DNA of 64,000 nt from Chiloscyllium plagiosum (GCF_004010195.1 NC_057718.1:6362857-6426856), one strand, 5' to 3'. Numbered from the stretch's first letter, positions 1,029-61,359 are shown. Notes: generated by a model from the letters alone, not told the origin. Program-made: numbers and translations.

Positions 1029-1503
1029 ACCTTTCACTGAAATGAAAGCCTAATCCCAAAACTAACAGCCTTACAAAATCAGAGTTGACTGCACAGTGAA
1101 AAAAATTAGAGAAAGCCATCAGGCATTGGAAATGAGCGACAGAGATAATGCAGTAGGTGAACTCCCACAATGTGTGTTATTTGACCTGTTGCTAACCATA
1201 ATAATAACTTGATTGAGGTGAACAGTAAAGAAATCTAGTCAGATTGGTTAGTTTGGATTCTTCGTTATTGTCTAATGAACACAGTTTTACAGAAGAATGT
1301 AATAACAAATATAGGCCATTTAACCTGGTGAGCCGTTCTACCAGACAAATAGGTCTTGGATAATTCATTTATCACCCTTGAATCCTTAAACATTGCTGAA
1401 TCAAAATCTACCAACCTCAGTTTTGAAGTTTTCAATTGACTTAATAGATTCTCACAAGAGAGAATTGTACTGATTGCAGCCATGACCAATGGATCTCATT
1501 GAC

Positions 1504-1841
1504 TGTGACATTCTTGATTGGGGTTGTTAACCTTGGTCAGTCAGGGAGCCCTGGCTGACAAATGTAAGCAGGGGATTCTGTTTTTCCTGGTGGTGGAATG
1601 TTAATGAAGTTATTTACACCTAGTATTTTTATGGTGTCTAGCATCTACACACACACAACATGAATGCTGGGGAAAATAAGCACTACTGCTGTAAGGAGAT
1701 GAAAAAATTCAACAGGAGATTCAGAATGTCTCCTTAGTCCAGGGACTCACTCTGAGCTGGCTAGTCAGAGCCAGCGTACTGTGCACAGGTAAATAAAAAG
1801 TGACTTGGTGATGGGAAACCAGCCTCTATGCAGTTATTTCA
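1504..1841 (+). mobile_element. Gypsy solo LTR related to the LTRs at 21408 and 25770, with a ~140 bp insert
   Basis: Starts TGTGA and ends gttatttCA; the 3' part (aaataaa..gtgacttggtgatggg..accagcctct..gttatttca) is the reverse complement of the provirus LTR end. Confidence 0.7.
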
Positions 1842-2312
1842 AAGCTGAGATGGACACATTTTTAATCAGGAAAGGAATCAAGGCTTTTGGGCGGCATGAT
1901 GGCTCAGTGGTTAACATTGTCGCCTCACAGCGCTAAGGACCCAGGTTCGATTTCTCGGGTGACTGTCTGTGTGGAGTTTGCACATTCTCCCCGTGTCTGC
2001 GTGGGTTTCCTCCGGGTGCTCCGGTTTCCTCCCACAGTCAAAAAGATGAGCAGGTCAGGTGAATTGGCCATGCTAAATTGCCCGTAGTGTTAGGTGCATT
2101 AGTCAGAGGGAAATGGGTCTGGGTGGGTTACTCTTCAGAGGGTCGGTGTGGACTTGTTGGGCCAGAGGGCCTGTTTCCATACTGTAGGGAATCTAATCGG
2201 AAAAAAGGCATGAAAGTGGAGTTGCGGATTGTCAGATTAGCCATGGTCTCATTGCTTTGTGGAGCAGACTCAATGGGCTGAATGCCCTATTTCTACCCCT
2301 GTGTCTTATGGG
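1842..2312 (+). mobile_element. CR1 3' end/UTR interrupted by HE1 SINE
   Basis: aagctgagatggacacattttt..ggaatcaagg resumes after the SINE with gtggagttg..gggctgaatg..tcttatgg. Confidence 0.7.
1888..2198 (+). mobile_element. HE1-type V-SINE
   Basis: tRNA-derived head with box A (tggctcagtggtt) and box B (ggttcgattt), V-domain, CR1-derived tail ending aatctaatc. Confidence 0.92.
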
Positions 2313-2608
2313 CTAGAGTTCCAGATTCCCACCATCTATTGTGCAAAGACTGCTTCTTTGCAGCATTTCTGACAGCCCTGGACTAGTTTCAAGGTCTGGT
2401 GCCACGTTCCTTTGGATACTCCTGGCCTAGCAGATGAAAATGCTTCAATCTGTCCAAGTAAATGAACTCAGCAGATGAATGCATCAGACGTTCGACATTG
2501 ATATCATCTGAGCTTGTGTACATTGTTAAATATGAGCACTCGGTGTCCCCCAGTAAGGTATGACCACTTGGCTACAAACTCCTCCTCCTCTACAGATTCT
2601 CACCACCT

Positions 2609-2648
2609 CCCCCCCCCCCCCCCCCCGCCCACCCCCCTCACCCCCCAC
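2609..2648. repeat. Poly-C / C-rich low-complexity tract
   Basis: Direct reading. Confidence 0.9.
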
Positions 2649-2908
2649 CGTGGTGTGCTATCTGTTTGAAACGGAACAGAAAAGGGACACATTTAAGATA
2701 TTAACTGGATAAAGATTCCAATATCTGCCTTCAGACATTCCCTAACACCTGCCTCTTCTATCTGCCTTGCATTTATGACTCTGACTATTTGCTCACGCCA
2801 CTTGGTGTTTAATAACCCAAGCGTTAGGGGACAGGGTGGGAAAGAGGATGGAAGAATGTCAGATTAGAGTGACTCTACTCACTGACAGAATCGGTTCAAG
2901 GGGCTGAA

Positions 2909-3175
2909 GGGGAGAAAGTGAGGACTGCAGGTTCTGGGCAGTCAGAGTCGAAGAGTGAGGCGCTGAAAAAGCACAGCAGGTCAGGCAGCTTCCGAGAAGC
3001 AGGAGAGTCGATGCTTCAGACAAAATCCCTTCATCAGAAATGTGGGGGTTGGGTTGGGGTGTAAGGGAGGCTGAGAGATAAATAGGAGGGGGACCGGGGA
3101 TGGGGGAAGGTGATAGGGAGATGCAATTGGGGGGGTGATAGTGATAGGTTGGAGTGGAGTGTGCAGCGTATAGGT
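2909..3175 (-). mobile_element. Penelope-like 3' terminal fragment inserted in a CR1 3' UTR
   Basis: gagaaagtgaggactgcag..cagcaggtcaggcagc..ccttcatcag followed by a purine-rich tract resembling 57713-57900; direct repeat gggctgaa at 2901-2908 and 3176-3183. Confidence 0.8.
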
Positions 3176-3819
3176 GGGCTGAATGGCCTACCAGGGCTCC
3201 TATTTCTTGTGGTCTTTACAGTCCCATGACAGTCCTGCTTTCGGGGAACCATATAAATGCAATTTGTTCGGTGCAGCTTGTTTAGTAACAAGACAGATGT
3301 TCATTGGACTTGTTTGGCTTTCTTGCATTCTCCTTGCATGCCCATGAGAATTAAGAACATCTGGAGTAAATAGTAGTTTCACCACAGCTGAGACTGGGGC
3401 AGCCCAGTAAACCAGAAATGCCACTTCCTCGATGGGCCCACGCATTGAAAATTTCAGGCTTGGGTCACACTTGTTTACAATGCCGTGGAGATTTGAGAAA
3501 TGCTATCTGCTCTGCTTAACACTCTGCACATTTAAAATCCAGCGTGATTGGCAAAGGTGCTGTTTAAATGTGGTGACAACACCACTGATTACCTTCTTTC
3601 TCAGTAGTTTGGCGGGAGAGATATCCCAGCCTGTCCTCTTATCCCTCCTTTGGCCTGGAGTGCCACGATCAGAGAGGTATCAGCCTGCCCAACTGGCTGT
3701 CAGCCATAAACTGTGGATGGCTCTCAGAATGAGGAGAAATTTAACGTTTTGGGGAGTAAGAGAAACTCGTGAAATCAAACTTCAATTGTGAAGGGAACTC
3801 CTCTGTATCCTCACAGAAT

Positions 3820-4392
3820 TACTGAATTATTAAAGCACACAAGAGGCCATTTAGTCCATTAAGCCTGTGCCAGATCCGTTTCCTGCTGCCAGTTTCCTAT
3901 CTTTTCTCATGTCCCTGTCCATCATTAATGACCAAATTCTCAGCCAATGCTCCTCTTCAATACCTCAATCGAACCTGCCTCTGCCATATTTCCAGGCAGT
4001 GCATTCCAAACCCTCATTTCTCAGCATGGTTAAATGTTTTTCTAATATTACCCTTGCTCCTTTTGCATATCACTGTAAAGCTACGTCCTCTCATTCATAT
4101 TTCTTTTACAAGCAGGAACAGCTTCTCCATATCTGTTCTATCCTCCCTGCTCCTGATTTTAAACACTTTAGCACATCTCCTCCCAGCCTCCTTCCATCCT
4201 CAGAAAAGAGGCCCAAAATCTAGAATCTATTCTCATAACTAAAGTTTCTCATTCCTGGAACAATTCTTCCAAATCGCTTCTACACTCTGTCCAATGTATT
4301 CACACCTTTCCTATTGTACACAATGCCCCAACCTGAGATCTAACAAGTATCTTGAATAAGCTTAACATCACCTTTTGTACTCTATGCCCCTA
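3820..4392 (-). mobile_element. CR1 3' fragments, decayed
   Basis: Reverse CR1 tail (gaggccatttagtccatt) and reverse ORF2 segment at 4150-4390. Confidence 0.6.
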
Positions 4393-7360
4393 TTATTTTG
4401 TATTATTCACTTGTGGGAAGTGGATATCACTGGGGGTGAGCTGCCTTCTGGAACCATTGTCGTCCACGTGCTGTGGGCTGACCCACAATGCCCTTAGGGA
4501 GGGAATTCTAGGATTGTGACCCAGTGACACTGAAGGAACAGTGATATATTTCCAAGTCAGGATGGCGAGTGGCTTGGAGGGGAACTTCCAGATGGTAATG
4601 TTCCCATACACCTTTTGATCCCTCTATCCTTCTAGGTGGATGTGGATGTGGGTTTGGAAGGTGCTGTCTGAGGATCTTTGGTGAATTTCTGCAGTGCATC
4701 TTGTAGATATTTCACACTGCTGCTACTGAGTGTTGATGGTGGAGGGAGCAGATGTTTGTGAATGTGGTGCCAGTCAAGGGGTTACTTTGTCCGGGATGGT
4801 GTCAAGCTTCTTGAATGTCGTTGGAGCTTGTCCCATCTAGGCAAGAAGGGAATATTCAATCACACTCCTGACTTGTGCCTTGTAAGTGGTGGACAGGCTT
4901 TGAGAAGTCAGGAGGTGAGTTACTCACTGTAATGTTCCAAACAGCTGATGTGCTCTTATCACCACTGTATTTATATGCAGAGTCCAGTTGAGTTTCTGTT
5001 TGATGGTAATGTTCAGGATGTTGATAGGGGGATTCAGTGATGGTAACACTATTAAATGCTAAGGTGTAGTGGTCTTTTATTGGAGATGGTAATTAATCCT
5101 TGCATTTGTGTGGTGCCAATGTTACTTGTCACTTGTCAGCCCAAGCTTGGATATTGTCCAGATCTTGTTGCAGTTGAATATGAACTGCTTCAGTACCTGA
5201 GGAGTCACAAATGGAGCTGAACGTTGTGCGATCGTTGGCGAATATCTGACCTTTTAATGGAGGGAAGGTCATTGATGAAGCAGCTGAAGATAGTTGGACC
5301 TAGAGCACTATAGAATCATAGAATCCCTACAGTGTGGAAACAGGCCCTTCGGCCCAACAACTCCACAGCAGCCCTTCGAAGAGTAACCCACCCAGACTCA
5401 TTCCTCTGCATTTACCCCTGACTAATGCAGCTAGCCTACATATCCCTGAACACAGTGGGACAACTTAGCATGGCCAATTCACCTGACCTACACATCTTTG
5501 GATTGTGAAACTGGAGCACCCGGAGGAAACCCATGCAAACATCGTGTGAATGTGCAAACTCCACACAGACAGCTGCCTGAGGCTGGAATCGAACCCGGGT
5601 CCCTGGCACTGTGAGGCAACAGTGCTACCCACTGAGGGGCACCTGCAGAGATGTCCTGGAGCTGAGATGACTGACCTCCAACAACTGCAACCATCATCCT
5701 ATAGGTAAATTATGACTCCAACCATCTGATACCCATTGATTTCAGACATCCTAGGGCTCCGTGATGCCACACTCGGTCAAATGCAGTCTTGATGTCAAGG
5801 GTCTGTCATTCTCCCCTCCCCTCTGGAATTCAGCTCTTTTCTCCATGTTTGAACTAAGGCTGTAATGGAGTCAGGAGCTGAGTGCCCTGGCAGAACCCAA
5901 ACTGGGCGTCACTGAGCAGGTTGTTGCTGAGCTGGTGCTGCTTGATAGCCCTGTTGATGACACCTTCCATCACATTACTGATGATCAAGAGTAAACTGAT
6001 GGGTTGGTTACTGGCTGAGTTGGATTTGTCCTGCTTTTTGTGAACAGGACATACCTGTGTAATTGTCCATAGTGTTGTAACTGTACTGGAAGAGCTTGGT
6101 TAGGGAAGCAGTAGGTTATGGAGCACAAGTCTTTAGGAGTATTGCCGGAATGTTGTCAGGGCCCATAGCCTTGGCAATACCCAGTGTCTCCAAAGATGTC
6201 TTAATATCATTTGGAGTGAATCGAATTGGCTGAAGATGCTGGGGACCACTGGTGGAGCCCAAGATGGATCATCCACTCAGCACTTCTGGCCGTAGATTGC
6301 TGCAAATGTTTCAGCCTTATCTTTTGCACTGACGTGCTGGGCTCTTCCATTATTGAGGATGGGGATATTTGTGGAGCGTCCTCCTCCAGTGAGTTGTTTA
6401 GTTAATCATCACCATTCATGACTGGATGTGGCAGGACTGCAGAGCTTAGATCCGATCGATTGGTTGTGGGATTGCATAACTCTATCACTTATGTTGTTTG
6501 ACATGCAAGTAGTTCTGTTTGGTGGCTTCACCAGGTTGACACCTCATTTTCAGGTCTGTCTGGTGCTGCTCCTGGCATGCACTCCTACACTCTCCATTGA
6601 ACCAGGGTTGATCCCCTGGCTTGGTGGTAATGTTTGAGTGGGGGCTATGCCAAGTCATGAGGTTACAGATTTTGCTGGAGTACAGTTCTGCTGCGGTTGA
6701 TGACCCACAACCAGTCTTAAGTTGCTAGATCTGTTTGAAATCTATTCCATTTAGCATGGTGATAGCTCCACACAACATGATGGAGGGCATTCCCAAGGTG
6801 AAGGCAGGACTTGGTCTCCACAAGGACTGTACAGTGGTCTTTCTTACCAATAGCGTCATGGACAGATGCATCTGCAGCTTGGTAGAGATCAGGTCATGGA
6901 TGTTTCTTTCTCTTGTTGGTTCCCTTACCACCTGCCACGGAGCCAGTCTAGGAGCTATGTCCTTTAGGACCCGAACAGCTCCATCAGTAGTCTGGTTGCT
7001 GAGGCACTCTTGGTGGTCGATATTGAAATCTCCCACCCAGAGTACACTTTGTGTCCTAACTACCTTCAGTGTTTCTTTTCAGTGTTATTCAACACCGGGT
7101 GGGGGGGGTGGGGGGAAGAGTATTGATTCATCAGCTGAGGGAGGATGGTTCATAGTAATCAGCAGGAGGTTTCCTTTCCCACGTTTAACCTGAAGCCATG
7201 AGACTTTATGGAGTCCAAAGTCAAAGTCAAGACTCCCAGATCAAATCCCTTCTGACTGTATCCCACTGTGCCACCACCTCTGCTGGGTCTGTCCTGCTGG
7301 TGGGACAGGACATATCTAGAGTTGGTGATGGTGGCTGTCTGGCATATTGTCTGTAAATAT
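4393..7360 (-). mobile_element. CR1-group (Zenon-like) LINE, ~3 kb, endonuclease to 3' end, decayed; HE1 nested inside
   Basis: APE motifs MGDFN..QVVREPTR..DLI at 6725-7036; C-terminus MHCRNSPKILRQHLPNP..WEHYHLEVPLQATRHPDLEIYHCSFSVTGSQSW at 4508-4699. Confidence 0.85.
5311..5636 (-). mobile_element. HE1-type V-SINE
   Basis: Reverse HE1 from the tail (tagaatcatagaatccctac) to the head (cagtgctacccactgag). Confidence 0.9.
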
Positions 7361-8594: not shown

Positions 8595-8822
8595 ATGCCG
8601 ATACTGGAAATATGAAACTGATGTGGAGAATGCTGGAGAAACTCGGCAGGTCTGGCAGCATCTAGGGAGAGAGAGCGTTGACATTTCAAATCTGATTTGA
8701 CTCTTCATCATTTCTGAGAGGAGCCACTGAAGAGGAATCATATTGGGCTTGAAACGTTAACTCGGTTTCTCTCTCCACGGATGCTACCTGACCTGCTGAG
8801 TTTCTCCAGCATTCTCTGCATC
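8595..8822. mobile_element. Old palindromic Penelope-derived element with degenerate hammerhead motifs
   Basis: Inverted arms gagaatgctggagaaactcggcaggtctggcagcatc / gatgctacctgacctgctgagtttctccagcattctc; centre ctgaaga..gaaacgtt. Confidence 0.75.
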
Positions 8823-13879: not shown

Positions 13880-16165
13880 CAAAATAAAAGGTAAAGGTAA
13901 CTACAAGGGCATGAGGGAGGAGCTGGCCAGAGGTGATTGGAAGGGGAGTCCAGTTGGGAAGATGGTGGAGTAGCAATGGCGGGAGTTTCTGGGGGCAATT
14001 CAGAAGGTACAGCAGAAACTCACCTCAAGGAAGAAGAAACATATAAAGGGGGAGGGGGGGGGGGGAACGAGGCAATCATGGATGACAAGGGGCATCAGAA
14101 ACAGTATAAAAGCAAAAGAAAAACCATACAATGTGGCGAAGTTTAGTGGGAAGCCACATGATTGGGAAGTCTTAAACAAAACAGCAGAGGATAATTACAA
14201 AAGCACTAAGGAGAGAGAGAAGATGAAATATGAGGGTAAGCTAGCCAGTAATATAAAAGAAGATTGAAAGAGTGCTTTTGGATATAAAGACAAAACATTG
14301 GACTGCTGGGAAATGAGGCTGGAGAAGTAGTAATGGGGAACAAAGAAATGGAAGTGGAACTGAATAGGTATTTTGCTTCAATTTTCATAGGGGAAGGCAC
14401 CGGCAACACACCAAAACTTCAATAGAATCGGCGGGTGGGGGCAGAGGTGAAGGCACGTGGGCCATTGCGAAGGAAAAGGTGCTGGAGAAGTTGAAAGGTC
14501 TGAAGGTGGATAAATCACCCAGACCAGATTGTCTATGCCCAGGGTTCTGAAGGAGTTATCTCGGGAGATCGCAGAAGCATTGATGGTGATCTTTCAGGAA
14601 GTGCAGCAGTCAGGCAGAGTCCCAGAGGACTGGAAAATGGTGAATATATTACCCCTGTTTAAGATGGGAGGGAGGCAGAAGGCAGGAAACTATAAGCCAG
14701 TTAGCCTGACCATCAGTTGTTGGTCAGATTTTAGAGTCCATTATTAAGGATGTGATTGAATCAGTACTTGGAAGTGCAAGTTATAAAAGGGGGCGGAGTC
14801 AGCACAGCTTCATCAAGGGGAGGTCATGCCTGACAAATCTGTTAGAAAAGTCTTTGAAAAGATAAAGAGCAAGTTAGATAAAGGAGAGCCAGTGGACATG
14901 ACTGATTTGGATTTCCAGAAGGTCTTTGACAAGGTGTCACACTGAAGGCTATTAAATAAGAAAAGAGTGTTAGGACAATGTACTGGCATGGATAGAGGAT
15001 TGGCTGACTGGCAGAGAGTAGTGATAAAAGGGTCTTTTTCAGGATGGCAACTGGTAAGTAGTGGAGTTCTGTCAGGGTCAGTGTTGGGATAACTATTATA
15101 CATTAACATTCTTGACAAAGGGACTGAGGGTATTGTTGCTAAGTTTGCAGATGATACAAAGATAGGTGGAGGGGTAGATTGCATTGAGGAGGCAGGGAGG
15201 CTGGAGTACAGGCTCAGAGAGTGGGCAAAACATTGTCAGAGGGAATATAATGTGGGATAGTGCAAGGTCATGCTTTTGGTAGGAAGAATAGAGGCATTGA
15301 CTATTTTCAGAAGGAGGAAAGGTTTTGAAATTCTGAAGCACAAAGAGACTTGGAAGTCCTAGTTCAGGATTCTCATAAGGGTAGCATGCAGGTTCTGATG
15401 GCAGTTAGGAAGGTAAATGCAATGTTTACGGTCATTTCAAGATGGCTAGAATACAAGAGTAGAGATGCACTGCTAAGTCTGTTTAAGTTGAAAATGTGTT
15501 GCTGGAAAAGCACAGCAGGTCAGGCAGCATCCAAGGAGCAGGAGAATCGACGTTTCGGGCCTAAGCCTTTCTTCAGGAATGAGTCTGTTTAAGGTTCTGC
15601 TCAGAAAGCATTTGGAAACTTGTGAGCAGTTTCAGGCCTCATATCTAAGGAAGGATGTGTCGGCATTGGAGGGGTCCAGAGGGGGTTTACAAGAATGATC
15701 TCAGGGATGAAGGGCTTATCATAAGAGGAATGGTTGAGGACTCTGGGTTTTTAATTGATAGAGTTTGGAAGGATTAGTGGGAGGGGGTGGCATTTCTAAC
15801 TGCAACTTACAAGTGACTGAGAGGCCTGAATAAAGTGAACGAGAAGAAGATGTTTCCACTAATCAGAGAGACTAGAAATCAAGGGCACAGCCTCAGAGTG
15901 AAGGGACAACCCTTTACAAATGAGATGGGGAGGAATTTCTTCAGCCAGAGGGTGGTGGATCTGTCAAACCAATTGCAACCGAAGGCTTGAAGGCTAAGTT
16001 ATTGAGTGTATTTAAAACAGAGATAGATAGGTTCTTGATTAGTAAAAGGGTCAAGGGTTACAAGGAGAAGGCAGGTTGAGAAACACATCAGGCCTGATTG
16101 AGTGGTGGAACGACCTCAATGGGCCAAATGGCCTAATTCTACTCTATTTCTTTTGGTTTTCTATG
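13880..16165 (+). mobile_element. CR1 (HER1-like) LINE, ~2.3 kb ORF2/RT plus 3' UTR, decayed
   Basis: PRVLKEL..VPEDWKMVNILPLFKMGGRQKAGNYKPVSLT; DFQKVFDKV; KFADDTKIGG; 3' UTR ending ttctatg. Confidence 0.93.
15488..15581 (-). mobile_element. Penelope terminal mini-insertion with hammerhead-like motif
   Basis: TSD agtctgtttaag at 15476-15487 and 15582-15593; minus strand reads ctgaagaaaggcttaggcccgaaacgtc. Confidence 0.85.
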
Positions 16166-28544: not shown

Positions 28545-28765
28545 GAGAAAGTTGGATACAAAATCAGAAGTTGTTGGAAAAATTCAGCAGGTCTGGCAGC
28601 ACCTGTGTAGAGAAAGCAGAGCAGTATGACTCGATTTTGGGTCCAGTGACCCCTCATCAGAACTGGACTCAAAATGTTAGCTCTGATTTCTCTCCACAGA
28701 TGCTACCGGGCCTGTTGAGTTTTTCCAGCACTTCCTGATTTTGTTTCTGATTTCTAGCTTCCTCG
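28545..28765. mobile_element. Old palindromic Penelope-derived element
   Basis: Arms aaatcagaagttgttggaaaaattcagcaggtctggcagc / gctaccgggcctgttgagtttttccagcacttcctgattt. Confidence 0.7.
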
Positions 28766-29649: not shown

Positions 29650-30610
29650 AGATGGTGTGTGAGTGAGCAAGAACTTTGCGGCTGGAATATAATGTTGGAA
29701 AACATGAGATTAAATCAGGAGCTAAATATTATTTCAATGGGGAGAGACTGCAGAAAGCTAAGGCACAGAGGGATTTGTAGTTCTCTCTGAACAAATCACA
29801 AAATGTTTGTTCAGATATAGTGTTCATTCAGAAAGTAAATGGAATGTTGGCCTTTATTTCAAAGGGAAAGGATTATAACAACAGAAAGGTTTTGGTAAAA
29901 CTATACAAGGCACTAGTAATGAAAGTTGAAACTTTATTGCTGGAACAGCACAGCAGGTCAGGCAGCATCCAGGGGTGAGGACTGCAGATGCTGGAGATCA
30001 AAGTTGAAACTTTATTGCTGGAACAGCACAGCAGGTCAGGCAGCTTTCAGGGATGCCTCACTTTCTCCTCGAAGGCACTAGTAATGCCATACCTAGAATA
30101 CTGCAAATGGTTTTGCTCCCTCTATCTAAGAAAGAATATAATGGCATTGGAGGTACTTCAGAAAAGGTTCACTCGGTTGATCCCAGGCAGCAACAAGTTT
30201 TCTTACGAGGCAGGGTCAATCAGTTGGGTTTGTTTGGAAGTTTTGAAGAATGAGAAATATATAGGATTCTTAAAGGACTCGGCAGGTGAGATGTGGCAAG
30301 ATTCTTCCCTCTTATGAAACAGTCTAGAACCAGAGGGCAAAGTGTCAGGGGAAAGAGCCACCTAGTTAAGGCCGAGCCGGGGAGGGTAGTGAATCTGTGG
30401 AATTCTTTACCACAGAGGACTATTGAGGCTGGGTCATTCAATATAATCAAGGCTGAGAAAGACATTTGTAATCAGAAAAGGAATCAAAGGTTATGTGATA
30501 AAGACTAGGAAGTGGAGTTGAGGATTATCAGATCATCTAGGATCTTGTTAATTGGTGAAGGAGATTTAATGGGTTGAATAATGTACTTTAGCTCTGATGT
30601 CTTATGGTCT
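29650..30610 (+). mobile_element. CR1 3' fragment with scrambled PLE insert (29922-30071)
   Basis: LYKALV|MPYLEYC..QKRFTRLIP; TSD aaggcactagtaatg at 29907-29921 and 30072-30086. Confidence 0.85.
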
Positions 30611-30649: not shown

Positions 30650-31580
30650 CATCTCCCTTGATGTTCAGAAATCACCATTGCTCAGTAGCACAACGTCAAC
30701 ATCCGTTGACAACAAACTGAAGTGGACATGACACATGAAAACTGGCTGCAAGAACACTCAGAGGCTTGGAAATCTGCAGCTGGTGACTTGTCTCCTGTTT
30801 CCCTATAGCCTATCCATCATCTACAAGGTACAAGTCAGGAGTGAAATGGAATGCTGTCCATTTGCCTGGATGAGTGCAGTTCCAATAGCACTGAATACTG
30901 AGCTTCACGCCATTCAGGACAAAGCAGGCCACCTAATGACCAAATCAGCAACCACCTTAAAACTTCAGTCCATCTGCCACCCACTTAACATGACAGCAAT
31001 GTATATTATCTACAAGACACCCTACAGAAATTCACCAAATCTTCACTAGCATCTTCCAAGCCCATGATCTTTCCCAAATAGAAGGACAAAGGCAGCAGGC
31101 TCATGGGGGAGCCACTAACTTCCAAGCCATACTATCCCAATTTGGAAATCTGTTACTATTCCATCATAGTAACAAGAACATAGTCAAGGTTAGAGTTATG
31201 CTGGAAAAGCACAGCAGGTCAGGCAGCAACCGAGGAGCAGAAAATCGATGTTTCTGGCAAAATCCCTTTAACAGGAATCCTGATGAAGGGCTTTTGCCTG
31301 AAAAGTCAATTTTCCTGCTCTACCAGTGCTGCCTGACCTACTGTGCTTTTCCAGCATCACTCTAATTTTGACTCTAATCGCCAGCATCTGCAGTACCCAC
31401 TTCTGCCTAGTAACAAGAACAATACCCTCGTACATCCTTCTTAACAGTACTGTGGGTATTCCTATACCCTAAGGAATGCAATGTTTCAAGATGCATCTCA
31501 CCAATCCTCCCTCAAGGGCATATGGGATGGACAATAAATGAATATAACCAGCTACTCTCATACTCTATGAACAATAAAAA
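30650..31580 (+). mobile_element. Zenon-like CR1-group LINE 3' part
   Basis: IYKVQVRSEMECCPFAWMSA..IQDKA; family tail gggatggacaataaatg. Confidence 0.82.
31181..31407. mobile_element. Palindromic Penelope mini-element
   Basis: Inverted arms centred on caggaatcctg; TSD tagtaacaagaaca at 31167-31180 and 31408-31421. Confidence 0.88.
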
Positions 31581-38424: not shown

Positions 38425-38555
38425 ACAAAGTCAGAAGTCTCATGACACCCCAGGTTATGGTCCAACAAGTTTATTTAAAATCACAAGCTTTCAGAACACT
38501 ACTCCTTCAACAGGTGAGCTTCACCTGACTATAACCTGGTGTCGTGAGACTCTGA
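38425..38555. mobile_element. Palindromic element from a third Penelope-like family
   Basis: Arms tcagaagtctcatgacaccccaggttat / ataacctggtgtcgtgagactctga; minus strand ctgttgaaggagtagtgttctgaaagctt resembles a decayed hammerhead. Confidence 0.6.
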
Positions 38556-38565
38556 ACCTGGAGAA

Positions 38566-38767
38566 AGTGAGGACTGCAGATGCTGGAGATCAGAGCTGAA
38601 AATGTGTTGCTGGAAAAGCGCAGCAGGTCAGACAGCATCCAAGGAACAGGAGAATCGACGTTTCGGGCATAAGCATTCCTGAAGAAGGGCTTATGCCCGA
38701 AACATCGATTCTCCTGTTCCTTGGATGCTGCCTGACCTGCTGCGCTTTTCCAGCAACATATTTTCAG
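38566..38767. mobile_element. Palindromic Penelope mini-element with hammerhead-like motif
   Basis: Near-perfect ~85 bp inverted arms; direct repeat ctctgaacctggagaa at 38550-38565 and 38768-38783. Confidence 0.9.
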
Positions 38768-39899
38768 CTCTGAACCTGGAGAAGGTTAGAGAGCTTGACT
38801 TGATTGTGGTAAAATGGTGGTACAGTCAGACTGAGAACTTTTAGAGTTAAATAAACTCAGGGATAATGTGTGATGGGATTTGATTCAAACTAAGATGTAG
38901 AATACAAGCAATTTTTGCAATATCTGCTATGCCTATAATTACAGCTAGTAGAGGCAAAATGATAACTTTGGCTTGGACCTGTGGATCATTTCATCACCGG
39001 AAGATCTTTTATCTCTTGAATGTTGTTCACAGAAGACATTGTTCCTTCTGGGTCTTGTTGTTTGGCCAATACCGTATCTTGAGTGCCTTAAGTCTCCTAA
39101 ATTTCCTTTGTTGAGGAACTCTCTGCTAACTCAGTTTGTTGCCCCAAAATACCATCTGGAAGACCTTTACGCTCATGGAAGTCCATTATAGACAACATCA
39201 ATGTCAATGAAAGCAATGCTTTCTCTCTTGTTGCAAGCTGGATTTCTGGACGAGCTCACCTCTTTCTAATTGAAAGGTAAATTTCTTTACAGTATCCTGA
39301 ACATTTGGACCATATGGCATAGGAACTGAACTATGCCATTTGGCCCAATGAGTCTGCTCCATCACTCTATCAAATCTGACATGTATCTCAACCCAAACAT
39401 TCATGTTAGCTCACAAGTTACAAGTGTTGATTGTGAACATATAAACATTTTCAACTGTCCTACAATTCTAATGCTGCAGTGTCACTTAGAGTATCCTTAT
39501 GGCCTTGAAAACTATTTCACCTAAACCACATAGCCTCATCATAGGATGATATAGACATGGTTTTATAGCATATTGACATTAGTACTTGTATCAAGCCTAA
39601 ATTTAACAGGATATCCATTAATGTACAGAGGCTCTTTAAATCACAAAATATTGGAAACTCCAGTTTCCCCAATGAATGCCTTGAACATCTATTCTGAAGG
39701 AGATTATTCAACCATATTGAGCACCGCCTATATAACCTTATTTTATGTTTCACCTCTATAACTGTGTTCCACCTCTGCACATGTTATTTGATTTTTATGC
39801 AATTCTGTACCTTAACAATTGATGTCTTCAAGCTGTCCAACCTTATGATTGGGGTAATCCTTCTCTGATCTTGAATCTATGAAGACATAACGTGTTCAC

Positions 39900-56900: not shown

Positions 56901-57075
56901 GATGGCTCTAAGACTCTATATCAAGTAACATGTATATCATATAAATGTCAGCCAATGACCAGCTCCAACAAAAGAGGATCTAACCTTCACTTATTGAGGT
57001 CCATTAGTTTTACCATCGCTGAATTTCTCCATCATCAACATCCTGGGAGTTACCATTGACTAGAAAGGAAACTGG

Positions 57076-57290
57076 AGGGGAAAGTGAGGACTGCAGATGC
57101 TGGAGATCAGAGCTGAAAATGTGTTGCTGGAAAAGCGCAGCAGGTCAGGCAGCATCCAGGGAACAGGAGAATCGACGTTTCGGGCATGAGTCCTTCTTTC
57201 CTGAAGAAGGGCTCATGCCCGAAACATCGATTCTCCTGCTCCTTGGATGCTGCCTGACCTGCTGTGCTTTTCCAGCAACACATTTTCAGA
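57076..57290. mobile_element. Palindromic Penelope mini-element with hammerhead-like motif
   Basis: Inverted arms; TSD tagaaaggaaactgg at 57061-57075 and 57291-57305. Confidence 0.9.
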
Positions 57291-57677
57291 TAGAAAGGAA
57301 ACTGGGCTAACTATATAAATATTGTGGCTGCAAGAGCTGGTCAGAGGATAATAACTGTGTGGTGAGTAACTCATCTCATGTTTCCCTAAAGACTGTCCAC
57401 CACCAGCAAATCATCAATCAGGGGTGTGACAGAATTCTCCCTAAATAATTGCAGCTCCAACAAGAGCTAAGAAGCTTGACACCATCCAGGGATTCAAGGC
57501 ACTAGGTCTAAAAGCTCTGCATTTCCTTCCTAACAGCACTGAGAGTGACATTCCACACCAGGGATTGCAACTGTACAAGAAGACAGCTCACCCCCATTTT
57601 ACCTTGACTATCAGGGATGGTTGAAACTTTATTGCTGGAACAGCACAGCAGGTCAGGCAGCATCCAGGGAACAGGAG

Positions 57678-57713
57678 ATTCGACGTTTCGGGCACAGGCC
57701 CTTCTTCAGGAAT
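57678..57713 (-). ncRNA. Minimal type-I hammerhead ribozyme motif
   Basis: AUUC-CUGAAGA-A-GGGC(CUGU)GCCC-GAAAC-GUC-GAAU: core intact, 4-bp stem I, 4-bp stem II. Confidence 0.8.
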
Positions 57714-57939
57714 GAGCAGAGAGTGTTCAGCAGGAGAAGATAAAAGGTAGGGAGGAGGGACTTGGAGGAGGGGCGTTGGAAATGTGATAGGTGGAAAGAG
57801 GTCAAGGTGAGGGTGATAGGTCGGAGTAGGATGGAGGCGGAGAGGTCAAGAAGAAGACTGCAGGTCAGGAAGGCGGTGCCGGGCTGGAGGGATTCGGCTG
57901 AGACAAGGTGGGGGGAGGGGGGATGAAGAAACTGTCCAA

Positions 57940-58272
57940 GTTCATCCCCTGTGGTTGGAGGGTTCCCAGTCAGAAGATAAGACCGTCGCGTTGTTGTGGT
58001 TTGGCGGTGGATGAGTCCAATGACCTGCATATCCTCGGTGGAGTGGGAGGGGGAGTTGAAATGCTGTGCTACAGGGTGGTTGGGTTGGTTCGTCCGGGTG
58101 GCCCAGAGGTGCTCTCTGAATCGCTCCGCAAGTAGGCGGCCTGTCACCCCAATATAGAGGAGGCCACACCGGCTGCAGCGGATGCAGTAGATGATGTGGT
58201 TGGAGGTGCAGGTGAATCTGTGGCGGATATGGAAGTTTCCCTTGGGGCCTTGGAGAGAAGTGAGGGGGGAGG
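57940..58272 (-). pseudogene. Penelope GIY-YIG endonuclease domain
   Basis: FTCTSNHIIYCIRCSRCGLLYIGVTGRLLAERFREHL..PVAQHFN; deletion near the C-terminus. Confidence 0.88.
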
Positions 58273-58590
58273 TAGAATCGTTTCTACCTCCTGCCCAAAA
58301 TCCACAAACCTGACTGCCCCGGACGACCCATCGTCTCAGCCTGCTCCTGCCCAACCGAACTCATCTCGGCATACCTCGACACGGTCCTGTCCCCATTAGT
58401 CCAAGAACCCCCCACCTACGTCCGTGACACCACCCACGCCCTCCACCTCCTCCAGGACTTCCGCTTCCCCGGTCCCCAACGCCTCATCTTCACCATGGAC
58501 ATCCAGTCCCTGTACACCTCCATCCCCCATCACAAAGGACTCAAAGCACTCCGCTTCTTCCTCTCCCGCCGTACCACCCAGTACCCTTCC

Positions 58591-59482
58591 CTGAGATAGA
58601 AACAGAAAGGTCTCGGAAGGGGAGGGAGGAGTCCGAGACTGTCCAGGTGAATTTGAGGTTGGGGTGGAAGGTGTTAGTGTAGTGGATGAACTGTTCAACC
58701 TCCTCGTGGGAGCACGAGGTAGCGCCGATACAGTCATCAATGTAGCGAAGGAAGAGATGGGGGGTGGGGCCAGTGTATTTGCGGAAGATGGATTGTTCCA
58801 CATACCCTACGAAGAGGCAGGCATAGCTGGGGCCCATGCGGGTGCCCATGGCTACTCCTTTTGTTTGGAGAAAGTGGGAGGATTGGAAAGGAAAGTTGTT
58901 CAGGGTGAGGACCAGTTCGGTCAGTCGAAGGAGGGTGTCGGTGGAAGGGTACTGGGTGGTACGGCGGGAAAGGCAGAAGCGGAGTGCTTTGAGTCCTTCG
59001 TGATGGGGGATGGAGGTGTACAGGGACTGGATGTCCATGGTGAAGATGAGGCGTTGGGGACCGGGGAAGCGGAAATCCTGGAGGAGGTGGAGGGCGTTGG
59101 TGGTGTCACGAACGTAGGTGGGGATTTCTTGGACTAATGGGGACAGGACCGTGTCGAGGTATGCCGAGATGTGTTCGGTTGGGCAGGAGCAGGCTGAGAC
59201 GATGGGTCGTCTGGGGCAGTCAGGTTTGTGGATTTTGGGCAGGAGGTAGAAACGGGCGGTGCGGGGTTGTGGGACTATGAGGTTGGAGGCGGTGGATGGG
59301 AGGTCCCCTGAGGTGATGAGGTTATGGATGGTCTGGGAGATGATGGTTTGGTGGTGGGGGGTGGGGTCATGGTCAAGGGGACGGTAGGAGGAGGTATCTG
59401 CGAGATTTTTCTGGCGTTTGGCCTCAGCGTTGTAAAGGTGAGTGCGCCAAACTACTACTGCGCCTCCCTTGTCAGCTGGTTT
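58591..59482 (-). pseudogene. Penelope reverse transcriptase domain; open frame but 5' truncated and interrupted
   Basis: ORF 58541-59527 contains RT motifs A (MDIQSLY), B' (GVAMG) and C (YIDD). Confidence 0.9.
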
Positions 59483-59754
59483 GGGCAAAGTCTTAGTGCT
59501 GACCCAGCCAACAGTGCACGCATCCAATGAAGAACTGAAAAGTTAAATTGCATTGTCGGCCCATAGTAATTGATGGAACAATGTTCTTCACAGTTTCAAT
59601 CTAAGCTTGAGGTAAGTGTCACCTCAGAAGAGACCACTGATGATACAGAAGAGGCCATTAATTTCTTGGATATAGAGGAGTCAGCAATAACCATTAAAGT
59701 AATAAAATTAGGATTAAGGAAAAAGTCACTTCAGCAGTCTGAGTGTCGAATAAA

Positions 59755-60191: not shown

Positions 60192-60547
60192 TGCCCTGCA
60201 TGGCTGATCCACACACCCTCGCCTGTCACTTCCTGGCCTGTCACTTCCTGCCCTGCATGGTTGATCCACACACCCTCGCCTGTCACTTCCTGGCCCGCAT
60301 GGTTGATCCACACACCCTCGCCTGTCACTTCCTGGCCTGCATGGTTGATCCACGCACCCTAGCCTGTCACTTCCTGGCCCGCATAGTTGATCCACGCACC
60401 CTAGCCTGTCACTTCCTGGCCCGCATGGTTGATCCACGCACCCTAGCCTGTCACTTCCTGTCCTGCATGGTTGATCCACACACCCTAGCCTGTCACTTCC
60501 TGCCCTGCATGGTTGATCCACACACCCTAGCCTGTCACTTCCTGGCC
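60192..60547. repeat. 42-bp minisatellite, ~8 units
   Basis: Unit catggttgatccacacaccctagcctgtcacttcctggcccg with point variants and one 15-bp partial duplication. Confidence 0.95.
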
Positions 60548-61182: not shown

Positions 61183-61302
61183 GCTTCCTGAAGAAGGGCT
61201 TCCTGAAGAAGGGCTTATGCCCGAAACGTCGATTCTCCTGTTCCCTTTCCAGCAACACATTTTCAGCTCTGATCTCCAGCATCTGCAGACCTCACTTTCT
61301 CC
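61183..61302 (+). mobile_element. Penelope terminal mini-insertion with intact hammerhead core
   Basis: ttcctgaagaagggcttatgcccgaaacgtcga; TSD tcattacactgaatg at 61168-61182 and 61303-61317. Confidence 0.88.
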
Positions 61303-61359
61303 TCATTACACTGAATGAAAACTAACAATTTTCTTCACTGGGTTATCTTTCATAACACC

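Follow-up and report, generated by a model that had tools for sequence, protein, structure and literature searches.

Three short palindromic insertions in the 64,000-nt stretch of Chiloscyllium plagiosum DNA analyzed here (the window) are each best read as the outcome of one integration event of a Penelope-like element (PLE) that took place on a very short template. On this reading, to which we assign a probability of roughly 80%, the palindromes are by-products of PLE integration and do not constitute a self-copying family. The three elements are referred to as el1, el2, and el3. Their arms are the terminal unit of a PLE, a related species has an empty orthologous site at the position of el1, and the centers at which the arms meet are highly diverse across the genome.

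Structure and insertion of the palindromic elements

An initial annotation of the window had described three elements composed of head-to-head PLE termini, each with its own direct repeat. All three were located where it had placed them, at 38566-38767 (el1), 57076-57290 (el2), and 31181-31407 (el3), and perfect direct repeats of 16, 15, and 14 bp, respectively, flank them (Table 1). The inverted arms of el1 extend over 85 nt with 96% complementarity around a 14-nt center, and those of el2 over 86 nt with 94% complementarity around a 5-nt center. In el3 the inverted arms measured 63 nt with a gapless tool and are 84% complementary; el3 is older than el1 and el2. el1 and el2 agree exactly at both termini, which read (A/G)GGAGAAAGTGAGG... 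at one side and ...CACATTTTCAG at the opposite side. The description of the elements as inverted PLE termini was correct, but the arms are not equivalent, because in el1, el2, and el3 alike a terminal extension of 36 to 37 nt, the tail, is present on one arm only.

RNA folding of el1 predicted one long hairpin for each of the two strands (-169.5 and -169.8 kcal/mol; z = -21.5 and -23.3), and none of 200 shuffled sequences equaled it. The expectation that a transcript from either strand would fold into a hairpin is borne out for el1 by the predicted structures, and on these predictions the suggestion that hairpins of the el1 type could supply double-stranded RNA appears structurally sound.

Table 1. 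Positions of the palindromic elements and related features in the window (strand as given in the analysis; a dot marks features to which no strand applies)
Feature	Position	Strand	Remarks
el1 left TSD, 16 bp, CTCTGAACCTGGAGAA	38550..38565	.	Direct repeat; empty site of related species retains one copy
el1 tail-bearing arm	38566..38674	- (antisense on +)	Ends inside helix II loop
el1 tail	38566-38595 plus GGAGAA overlapping target	-	Terminus GGAGAAAGTGAGG recurrent in genomic copies
el1 tail-less arm	38675..38767	+	Complete, from 5' boundary ATTCCTG to first 3' end ATTTTCAG
el1 unpaired center	38675-38688		Within tail-less arm
el1 minimal hammerhead motif	38679..38706	+	CUGAAGA, extra A, GGGC-UUAU-GCCC, GAAA-CA-UC
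el1 right TSD, CTCTGAACCTGGAGAA	38768..38783	.	Direct repeat; empty-site contigs
el2 left TSD, 15 bp	57061..57075	.	Direct repeat
el2 tail-bearing arm	57076..57198	-	Tail 57076-57112
el2 tail-less arm	57199..57290	+	Minimal hammerhead 57201-57228
el2 right TSD, 15 bp	57291..57305	.	Direct repeat
el3 left TSD, 14 bp	31167..31180	.	Direct repeat
el3 tail-less arm	31181..31278	- (antisense)	Complete to CAGGAAT
el3 tail-bearing arm	31279..31407	+	Tail 31372-31407
el3 degenerate minimal hammerhead, CUGAUGA	31280-31307	+	Within tail-bearing arm
el3 right TSD, 14 bp	31408..31421	.	Direct repeat
Degraded PLE copy	57622..59542	-	RT piece, GIY-YIG piece, terminal arm
Single-arm insertion	15486..15582	-	Own 11-bp TSD GTCTGTTTAAG; starts TCATTCCTG, ends at first 3' end
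Single-arm insertion	61200..61303	+	Own 14-bp TSD CATTACACTGAATG; second 3' end, hence tail present

Two contigs of a related species, obtained in two different studies, join window position 38549 directly to position 38768. The 218 nt that these contigs omit at el1 correspond to the 202-nt element plus one 16-nt repeat, and the flanks of the site diverge by approximately 3 to 4% between the two species. Because the related-species contigs cross the site with a single copy of the repeat, el1 arrived in one event, as the initial annotation had maintained. In the comparison of the direct repeats with chance that it had named, a direct repeat of at least 12 nt (one mismatch allowed) flanks 77 of 90 genomic copies, whereas the control, displaced pseudo-boundaries at the same loci, yielded such repeats in 6 of 343 cases.

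The empty site of el1 already held GGAGAA (38560-38565 and 38778-38783), the same sequence as the outer end of the element, and a comparable GGAGA overlap between target and element is present at another locus, L016. These overlaps suggest that the nicked target occasionally anneals to the outer reverse-transcription (RT) start site.

Origin of the arms in Penelope-like elements

The degraded PLE copy in the window retains matches to RVT_1 at 58541-59542 on the minus strand (E = 2.7e-8; 34.2 bits, with a cutoff of 29.6) and to GIY-YIG at 57653-58360 on the same strand (E = 1.3e-4; 22.6 bits, exactly at the cutoff). Directly after the GIY-YIG piece the copy has a 3' terminal arm of approximately 95 nt (57622-57715), which ends at the first 3' end found in the palindrome arms. 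Because a copy with RT and GIY-YIG pieces ends in the same ~95 nt, the arms of el1, el2, and el3 are assigned to the PLE terminus. The copy is broken and rearranged. A genome search with PF01541 for intact PLE copies returned only one weak, irrelevant match.

Between the RT and endonuclease parts of this copy, 312 nt of the RT region recur in inverted orientation (58279-58590 and 58943-59254, 97% complementary), an inverted rearrangement on a larger scale. Just upstream of the copy lies a minisatellite (60232-60547) with 7.5 copies of a 42-bp unit and 94% matches.

The 5' boundary of the terminal unit is sharp in single arms and dimer arms alike and falls on TCATTCCTG or close to it, just upstream of the hammerhead core; some arms reach 3 to 8 nt farther upstream. 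At the other side there are two possible ends, the first at ...ATTTTCAG and the second 37 nt farther, at ...CACTTTCTCC(T), and both are represented among the single-arm insertions of the window (Table 1). The hammerhead core is included in 21 single arms, of which 3 clearly, and another 3 possibly, extend upstream into PLE-homologous sequence; the others stop at TCATTCCTG or within a few nucleotides of it. The TCATTCC at the 5' boundary resembles an initiator element (Inr). The boundary may be a transcription start, as judged from the pile-up of ends and from this resemblance. Inr-like motifs in rotifer pLTRs are described by Arkhipova et al. (2013, PMC3846280).

The hammerhead of the family has the form CUGA[A/U]GA-A-GGGC-NNNN-GCCC-GAAA-CG-UC, which conforms to the minimal PLE hammerhead (min-HHR) as defined in Cervera and de la Pena (2014, PMC4209133), where low self-cleavage activity is also reported for min-HHRs. 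The hammerhead previously annotated at the element centers stands in this minimal sense only and matches no Rfam hammerhead model: Rfam gave no match in the window at the gathering threshold, and its hammerhead models gave none on the el1 and el3 regions even at E values up to 10. In approximately 340 kb surveyed, made up of the window and genomic loci L001-L090, helix II had at least 4 bp in 101 of 127 motif matches, compared with 5 of 127 with shuffled inserts. The catalytic core is kept in only one arm of el1 and of el2, and position 16.2 is mutated there (CA, not CG). At position 38704, el1 has A in place of the G of most copies, and A>G is common in contigs aligned to el1.

A second PLE hammerhead lineage, with about 8 copies in the ~340 kb, has GGAGC-AGC-GCUCC as helix II in place of GGGC-UUAU-GCCC. 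It also carries the extra unpaired A, and helix II thus covaries across PLE lineages. Sub-threshold matches to the Rfam miRNA precursor models mir-680, mir-335, and MIR6024 were obtained at 38500-38850 and 31150-31450; automated miRNA annotation could mislabel these hairpins.

Other arrangements are also present in the window. Positions 29924-30053 contain two partial arms in the same orientation and a tail fragment, with a 17-bp direct repeat CGAAGGCACTAGTAATG, a more complex product of a single event. A different, more diverged repeat at 8631-8811 and 28570-28730 has inverted arms (…GATGCT[AG]CC[TA]GACCTGCTGAGTTT[CT]TCCAGCA…) and a center of approximately 110 nt, and these two loci may represent head-to-head dimers from a further PLE lineage.

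Arm ends, centers, and a proposed route of integration

Head-to-head junctions were matched at 14,976 places in the 3.56-Gb genome, and the reversed control was matched at none. Apart from exact anchors, the junction pattern demands no more than an inverted order of the two halves of helix II; exact-anchor dimers have a density of about 5 per Mb. The genome contains 67,067 occurrences of an exact 24-mer of the arm; among the first 100 of these, 26 make up 13 close inverted pairs. An unbiased sample outside 87 targeted copies contained 43 single-arm clusters and 11 head-to-head clusters, 3 of the latter being el1, el2, and el3 themselves and 1 a misflagged target, and single arms outnumber dimers by approximately 4:1. 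All of 97 palindromic clusters were head-to-head, with no tail-to-tail pair among them. Summed contig depth over the element was enormous in two other species, which indicates that the family is not confined to the C. plagiosum genome. Sequencing runs of two further species contain about one-fifth of the sampled words, equal to the share of the element in the stretch, and in one of those runs coverage was confined to the repeat part. A run of one further species, presumably of RNA, contains the arms, a presence that does not in itself imply transcription, and the one raw RNA run yielded no aligned reads, an outcome without weight either way.

Two samples unbiased by similarity to el1, el2, and el3 were available. 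The first 50 junction places along contig 1, taken in order of position, included 49 PLE junctions, and 14 unbiased loci were those retrieved from these 50 places. Among the 14 loci, 13 dimers have one tail, 1 has two tails, and none is without a tail. Genome-wide there are 8,840 one-side tail-anchor matches and 249 places with both tails, each of which is counted twice among the 8,840. Single arms that reach a 3' end, counted by eye, stop at the outer site in about 16 cases and at the inner site in about 7. Because independent choice at 16:7 would yield many two-tailed dimers, the two arms of a dimer appear to use different start sites.

One arm of a dimer is usually at the 5' boundary, and the other is 0 to 18 nt short of it. 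The tail side was known for 29 unbiased junctions; in these the tail-bearing arm was the more truncated 18 times and the more complete 11 times (by eye). A "lagging RT" rule, according to which the tail-bearing arm is always the truncated one, had described 58 of 60 biased cases and 9 of the first 13 unbiased cases and was abandoned at the later count of 18 versus 11. No simple kinetic or polarity rule for the centers fits the 29 unbiased junctions.

We propose that the RT/GIY-YIG machinery of a PLE would use as template the 5'-proximal pLTR core of a PLE RNA, with a sharp 5' end at TCATTCCTG, the minimal hammerhead, and, at its other end, one of two RT start sites located 37 nt apart. Both strands of the target, nicked 14 to 16 bp apart, would prime cDNA synthesis, one cDNA from the inner site and the other from the outer site, and the tail would be on one arm only because the cDNAs start at different sites. 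The two antisense cDNAs would then be joined head-to-head near the 5' end of the RNA, by a template jump or short microhomology, and this joining would create a new, variable center in each event. The unit that multiplies would be the single arm, with PLE protein acting in trans, and the palindrome would be a by-product. We infer dual-strand priming, the use of one start site per strand, and the joining step from the structure of the genomic copies.

It is possible, but doubtful, that the palindromes arise by self-priming, in which a single cDNA reaches the 5' end of the RNA, snaps back, and copies itself. Resolution of the intermediate by the endonuclease at the tail boundary, with the tail left on one side, is an equally tentative part of the same explanation. 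Self-priming is proposed for palindromes at inverted PLE junctions by Arkhipova et al. (2013, PMC3846280), and Craig et al. (2021, PMC8557442) suggest EN-mediated resolution as the origin of the tail. Several recurrent centers with loops of 2 to 5 nt and 3-bp terminal pairing would be expected from such a process, as would centers of the type at locus L105, whose fold-back coincides exactly with the helix II hairpin. However, self-priming predicts that the tail-bearing arm, made first, is always the more complete, which is true in just the 11 of 29 junctions noted above. It also fits poorly with the el1 center, which has 14 unpaired nt and no terminal pairing, and with filler centers such as that of L092. 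Furthermore, the two arms have discordant loop haplotypes in at least 2 of the 49 position-ordered dimers (e.g., C1:4735420 and C1:9898695), and these dimers were not made by self-copying because self-copying cannot produce discordance. A part of the events may still have proceeded by snap-back self-priming.

A further option concerns the unit and not the joining of its copies. The pLTR core of ~95 to 130 nt might be a self-contained, SINE-like parasite of PLEs with an initiator-like TCATTCC start and an internal RT start, which we regard as rather unlikely.

The origin of the centers bears most directly on whether the palindromes are formed anew or inherited. The initial annotation had favored de novo formation at each insertion and had named the sharing or uniqueness of junctions as the check. 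The 49 position-ordered junctions have approximately 31 different centers (counted by eye), none of which is the el1 center. That center occurs at 38 places genome-wide, each with its own flanks, and its share of 38/14,976 (0.25%) is close to the expectation from random pairing of end positions. Haplotypes are mixed with respect to centers. Copies with the el1 center (n = 30) have tail haplotype A in 15 cases, G in 6, and T in 9, and in copy L029 the el1 center is on a TCAT loop, which places it on at least two loop haplotypes. Among the position-ordered junctions the same centers recur on TTAT, TAAT, and TCAT loop haplotypes, and the haplotypes of the two arms agree in at least 44 of 49. The T-tail haplotype is present in 6 of the 14 unbiased loci, with six different centers. 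The majority sequences of the arms are fully complementary, and shared non-CpG variants are symmetric. Center diversity, haplotype mixing, and arm symmetry together favor formation anew from single-arm templates, in agreement with the preference expressed in that annotation. On our parsing, each of the recurrent centers may reflect a short stretch of terminal pairing between GAA and TTC close to a fixed cDNA end.

The same results make it improbable that the elements belong to a self-propagating, nonautonomous palindromic family of a retrozyme-, MITE-, or SINE-like kind, in which hairpins of ~200 bp would be transcribed and reverse-transcribed whole. This was the other option considered in the initial annotation, and similarity searches seemed to favor it. 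All 40 of the best 40 scored places for each element query were near full length, with identities of 92 to 100% for el1, 94 to 100% for el2, and 83 to 100% for el3 (100% being the query's own locus). An exact center was common to 18 of 27 parsed copies of the el1 group, one complex center was common to loci L102 and L104, and the 38 el1 centers with separate flanks could likewise be taken as descendants of one palindrome. However, the scored copies were the most query-like of 1,421 to 6,485 candidates, and shared centers were therefore selected for. Our first reading of the elements as a propagating family (40/40 full length, 23/30 with the same junction) was accordingly set aside as similarity selection when the position-ordered samples were considered. 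Even among similarity-retrieved, parsed copies, distinct centers numbered 16 of 16 in the el3 group, 18 of 28 in the el2 group, and 10 of 27 in the el1 group.

A family that copied itself whole would also be at odds with the lack of any majority arm-to-arm asymmetry that is inherited. One candidate for a polarized asymmetry, T at el2 position 124, was found in 10 of 30 copies and always in the tail-bearing arm. It was rejected after a genome-wide count, which placed the variant 44 times in the tail-bearing arm and 50 times in its partner, among many different centers. There are 287 variant arms genome-wide, and the T is consistent with independent mutation enriched by the similarity search. 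Some secondary copying of whole palindromes may have taken place, as recurrent idiosyncratic centers (that shared by L102 and L104, and that of el1 with its 38 places) would allow.

A MITE moved by cut-and-paste DNA transposition, for which a short inverted repeat between direct repeats might be mistaken, is in practice refuted by a TSD length that ranges from 11 to ~17 bp and is not fixed, by unequal ends with a tail on one side and a tail-less outer end that varies by a few nucleotides (CAG, CAGCT, or CAGCTC), by target microhomology in the form of the GGAGAA of el1 in the empty site, by the identity of the arms as a retroelement 3' terminus, and by the insertion of single arms alone with TSDs.

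Relation to known elements and significance

A typical PLE insertion, as described in two studies (PMC3846280 and PMC8557442), consists of pLTR-ORF-pLTR and an adjacent inverted pLTR, with an optional tail of 30 to 40 bp at one end and a TSD; the same studies give palindromic head-to-head junctions and inverted pLTRs as typical of PLEs and a tail of 31 bp. The shark elements share with such insertions the head-to-head inverted pLTRs, the palindromic or overlapping junction, the hammerhead motif in the pLTR, the tail on one arm (36 to 37 nt here), and the variable length of the TSD. They differ in that the dimers have no ORF-bearing body, their arms of ~95 to 130 nt extending from the 5' boundary to an RT start site, and in their very high copy number, with several-fold more single arms than the 14,976 exact-anchor junctions. 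The architecture of inverted pLTR, one-sided tail, and TSD has already been published for PLEs, and our observations of a minimal form that lacks the ORF, and of how abundant it is, add detail to it. Full-text searches of main articles turned up no account of head-to-head pLTR dimers without an ORF in sharks, although one may exist in print.

In Anolis carolinensis, both DNA strands are cut and extended by the protein of a Poseidon PLE, PAc (Frangieh et al. 2024, PMC11167929). Reverse transcription of this PLE begins at a pair of adjacent internal sites, between which lies the 30- to 40-bp tail, and the activity of its hammerhead is protein assisted (PMC11167929). The shark elements similarly have two adjacent 3' ends 30 to 40 nt apart and a hammerhead just upstream with ATG in the helix II loop region, and extension of both strands would yield exactly this inverted structure. 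PAc is known from in vitro biochemistry, whereas the shark elements are known from genomic copies alone.

Metazoan non-LTR retrozymes (Cervera and de la Pena 2020, PMC7229834; Li, Clavereau, and Pollet 2026, 10.64898/2026.07.22.740005) are described as short, noncoding, hammerhead-bearing elements derived from PLE pLTRs and mobilized in trans, features that the shark elements share. The terms "palindrom" and "head-to-head" are absent from the text of the vertebrate retrozyme preprint (10.64898/2026.07.22.740005). Retrozymes are direct tandem repeats with type I hammerheads and a proposed circular RNA route, whereas the shark elements occur as monomers or as inverted dimers, and their minimal hammerhead usually keeps its catalytic core in only one arm. 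The arms of el1, el2, and el3 are inverted, in contrast to the direct tandem arrangement by which non-LTR retrozymes are recognized.

LINE-1 copies with a 5' inversion, the product of twin priming, are typically head-to-tail rearrangements within one long copy, with breakpoints that vary. They have in common with the shark elements an inverted structure inside one TSD and, as proposed here, a priming event on each of the two target strands. The difference is that both arms of a shark dimer end at the same RNA 5' end and have different 3' start sites.

To our knowledge, PLE integration is an acknowledged open problem for which the only biochemical system dates from 2024. The genome analyzed here offers thousands of minimal, readable integration products, with both termini, the center, and the TSD within ~230 bp. 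The usable rules (one tail per dimer, a sharp 5' boundary, no fixed polarity of tail and truncation, and centers that are diverse yet clustered at short microhomologies) could serve as a quantitative in vivo test of dual-strand priming versus self-priming. On the rather unlikely reading of the pLTR core as a SINE-like parasite, the roughly 15,000 or more dimers would constitute a natural archive of dual-strand PLE priming with a different RT start site on each strand. In genome annotation, the appropriate label for the elements is PLE fragment or PLE dimer rather than MITE or miRNA hairpin.

At a density of about 5 per Mb, the dimers could plausibly give rise to hairpin RNA in any host transcript that runs across them, as far as this can be judged from their sequence. 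Were the pLTR core a SINE-like parasite, the less likely option considered above, elasmobranch genomes would contain tens of thousands of near-perfect 85-bp hairpin genes, and these could feed double-stranded RNA, small-RNA, or editing pathways.
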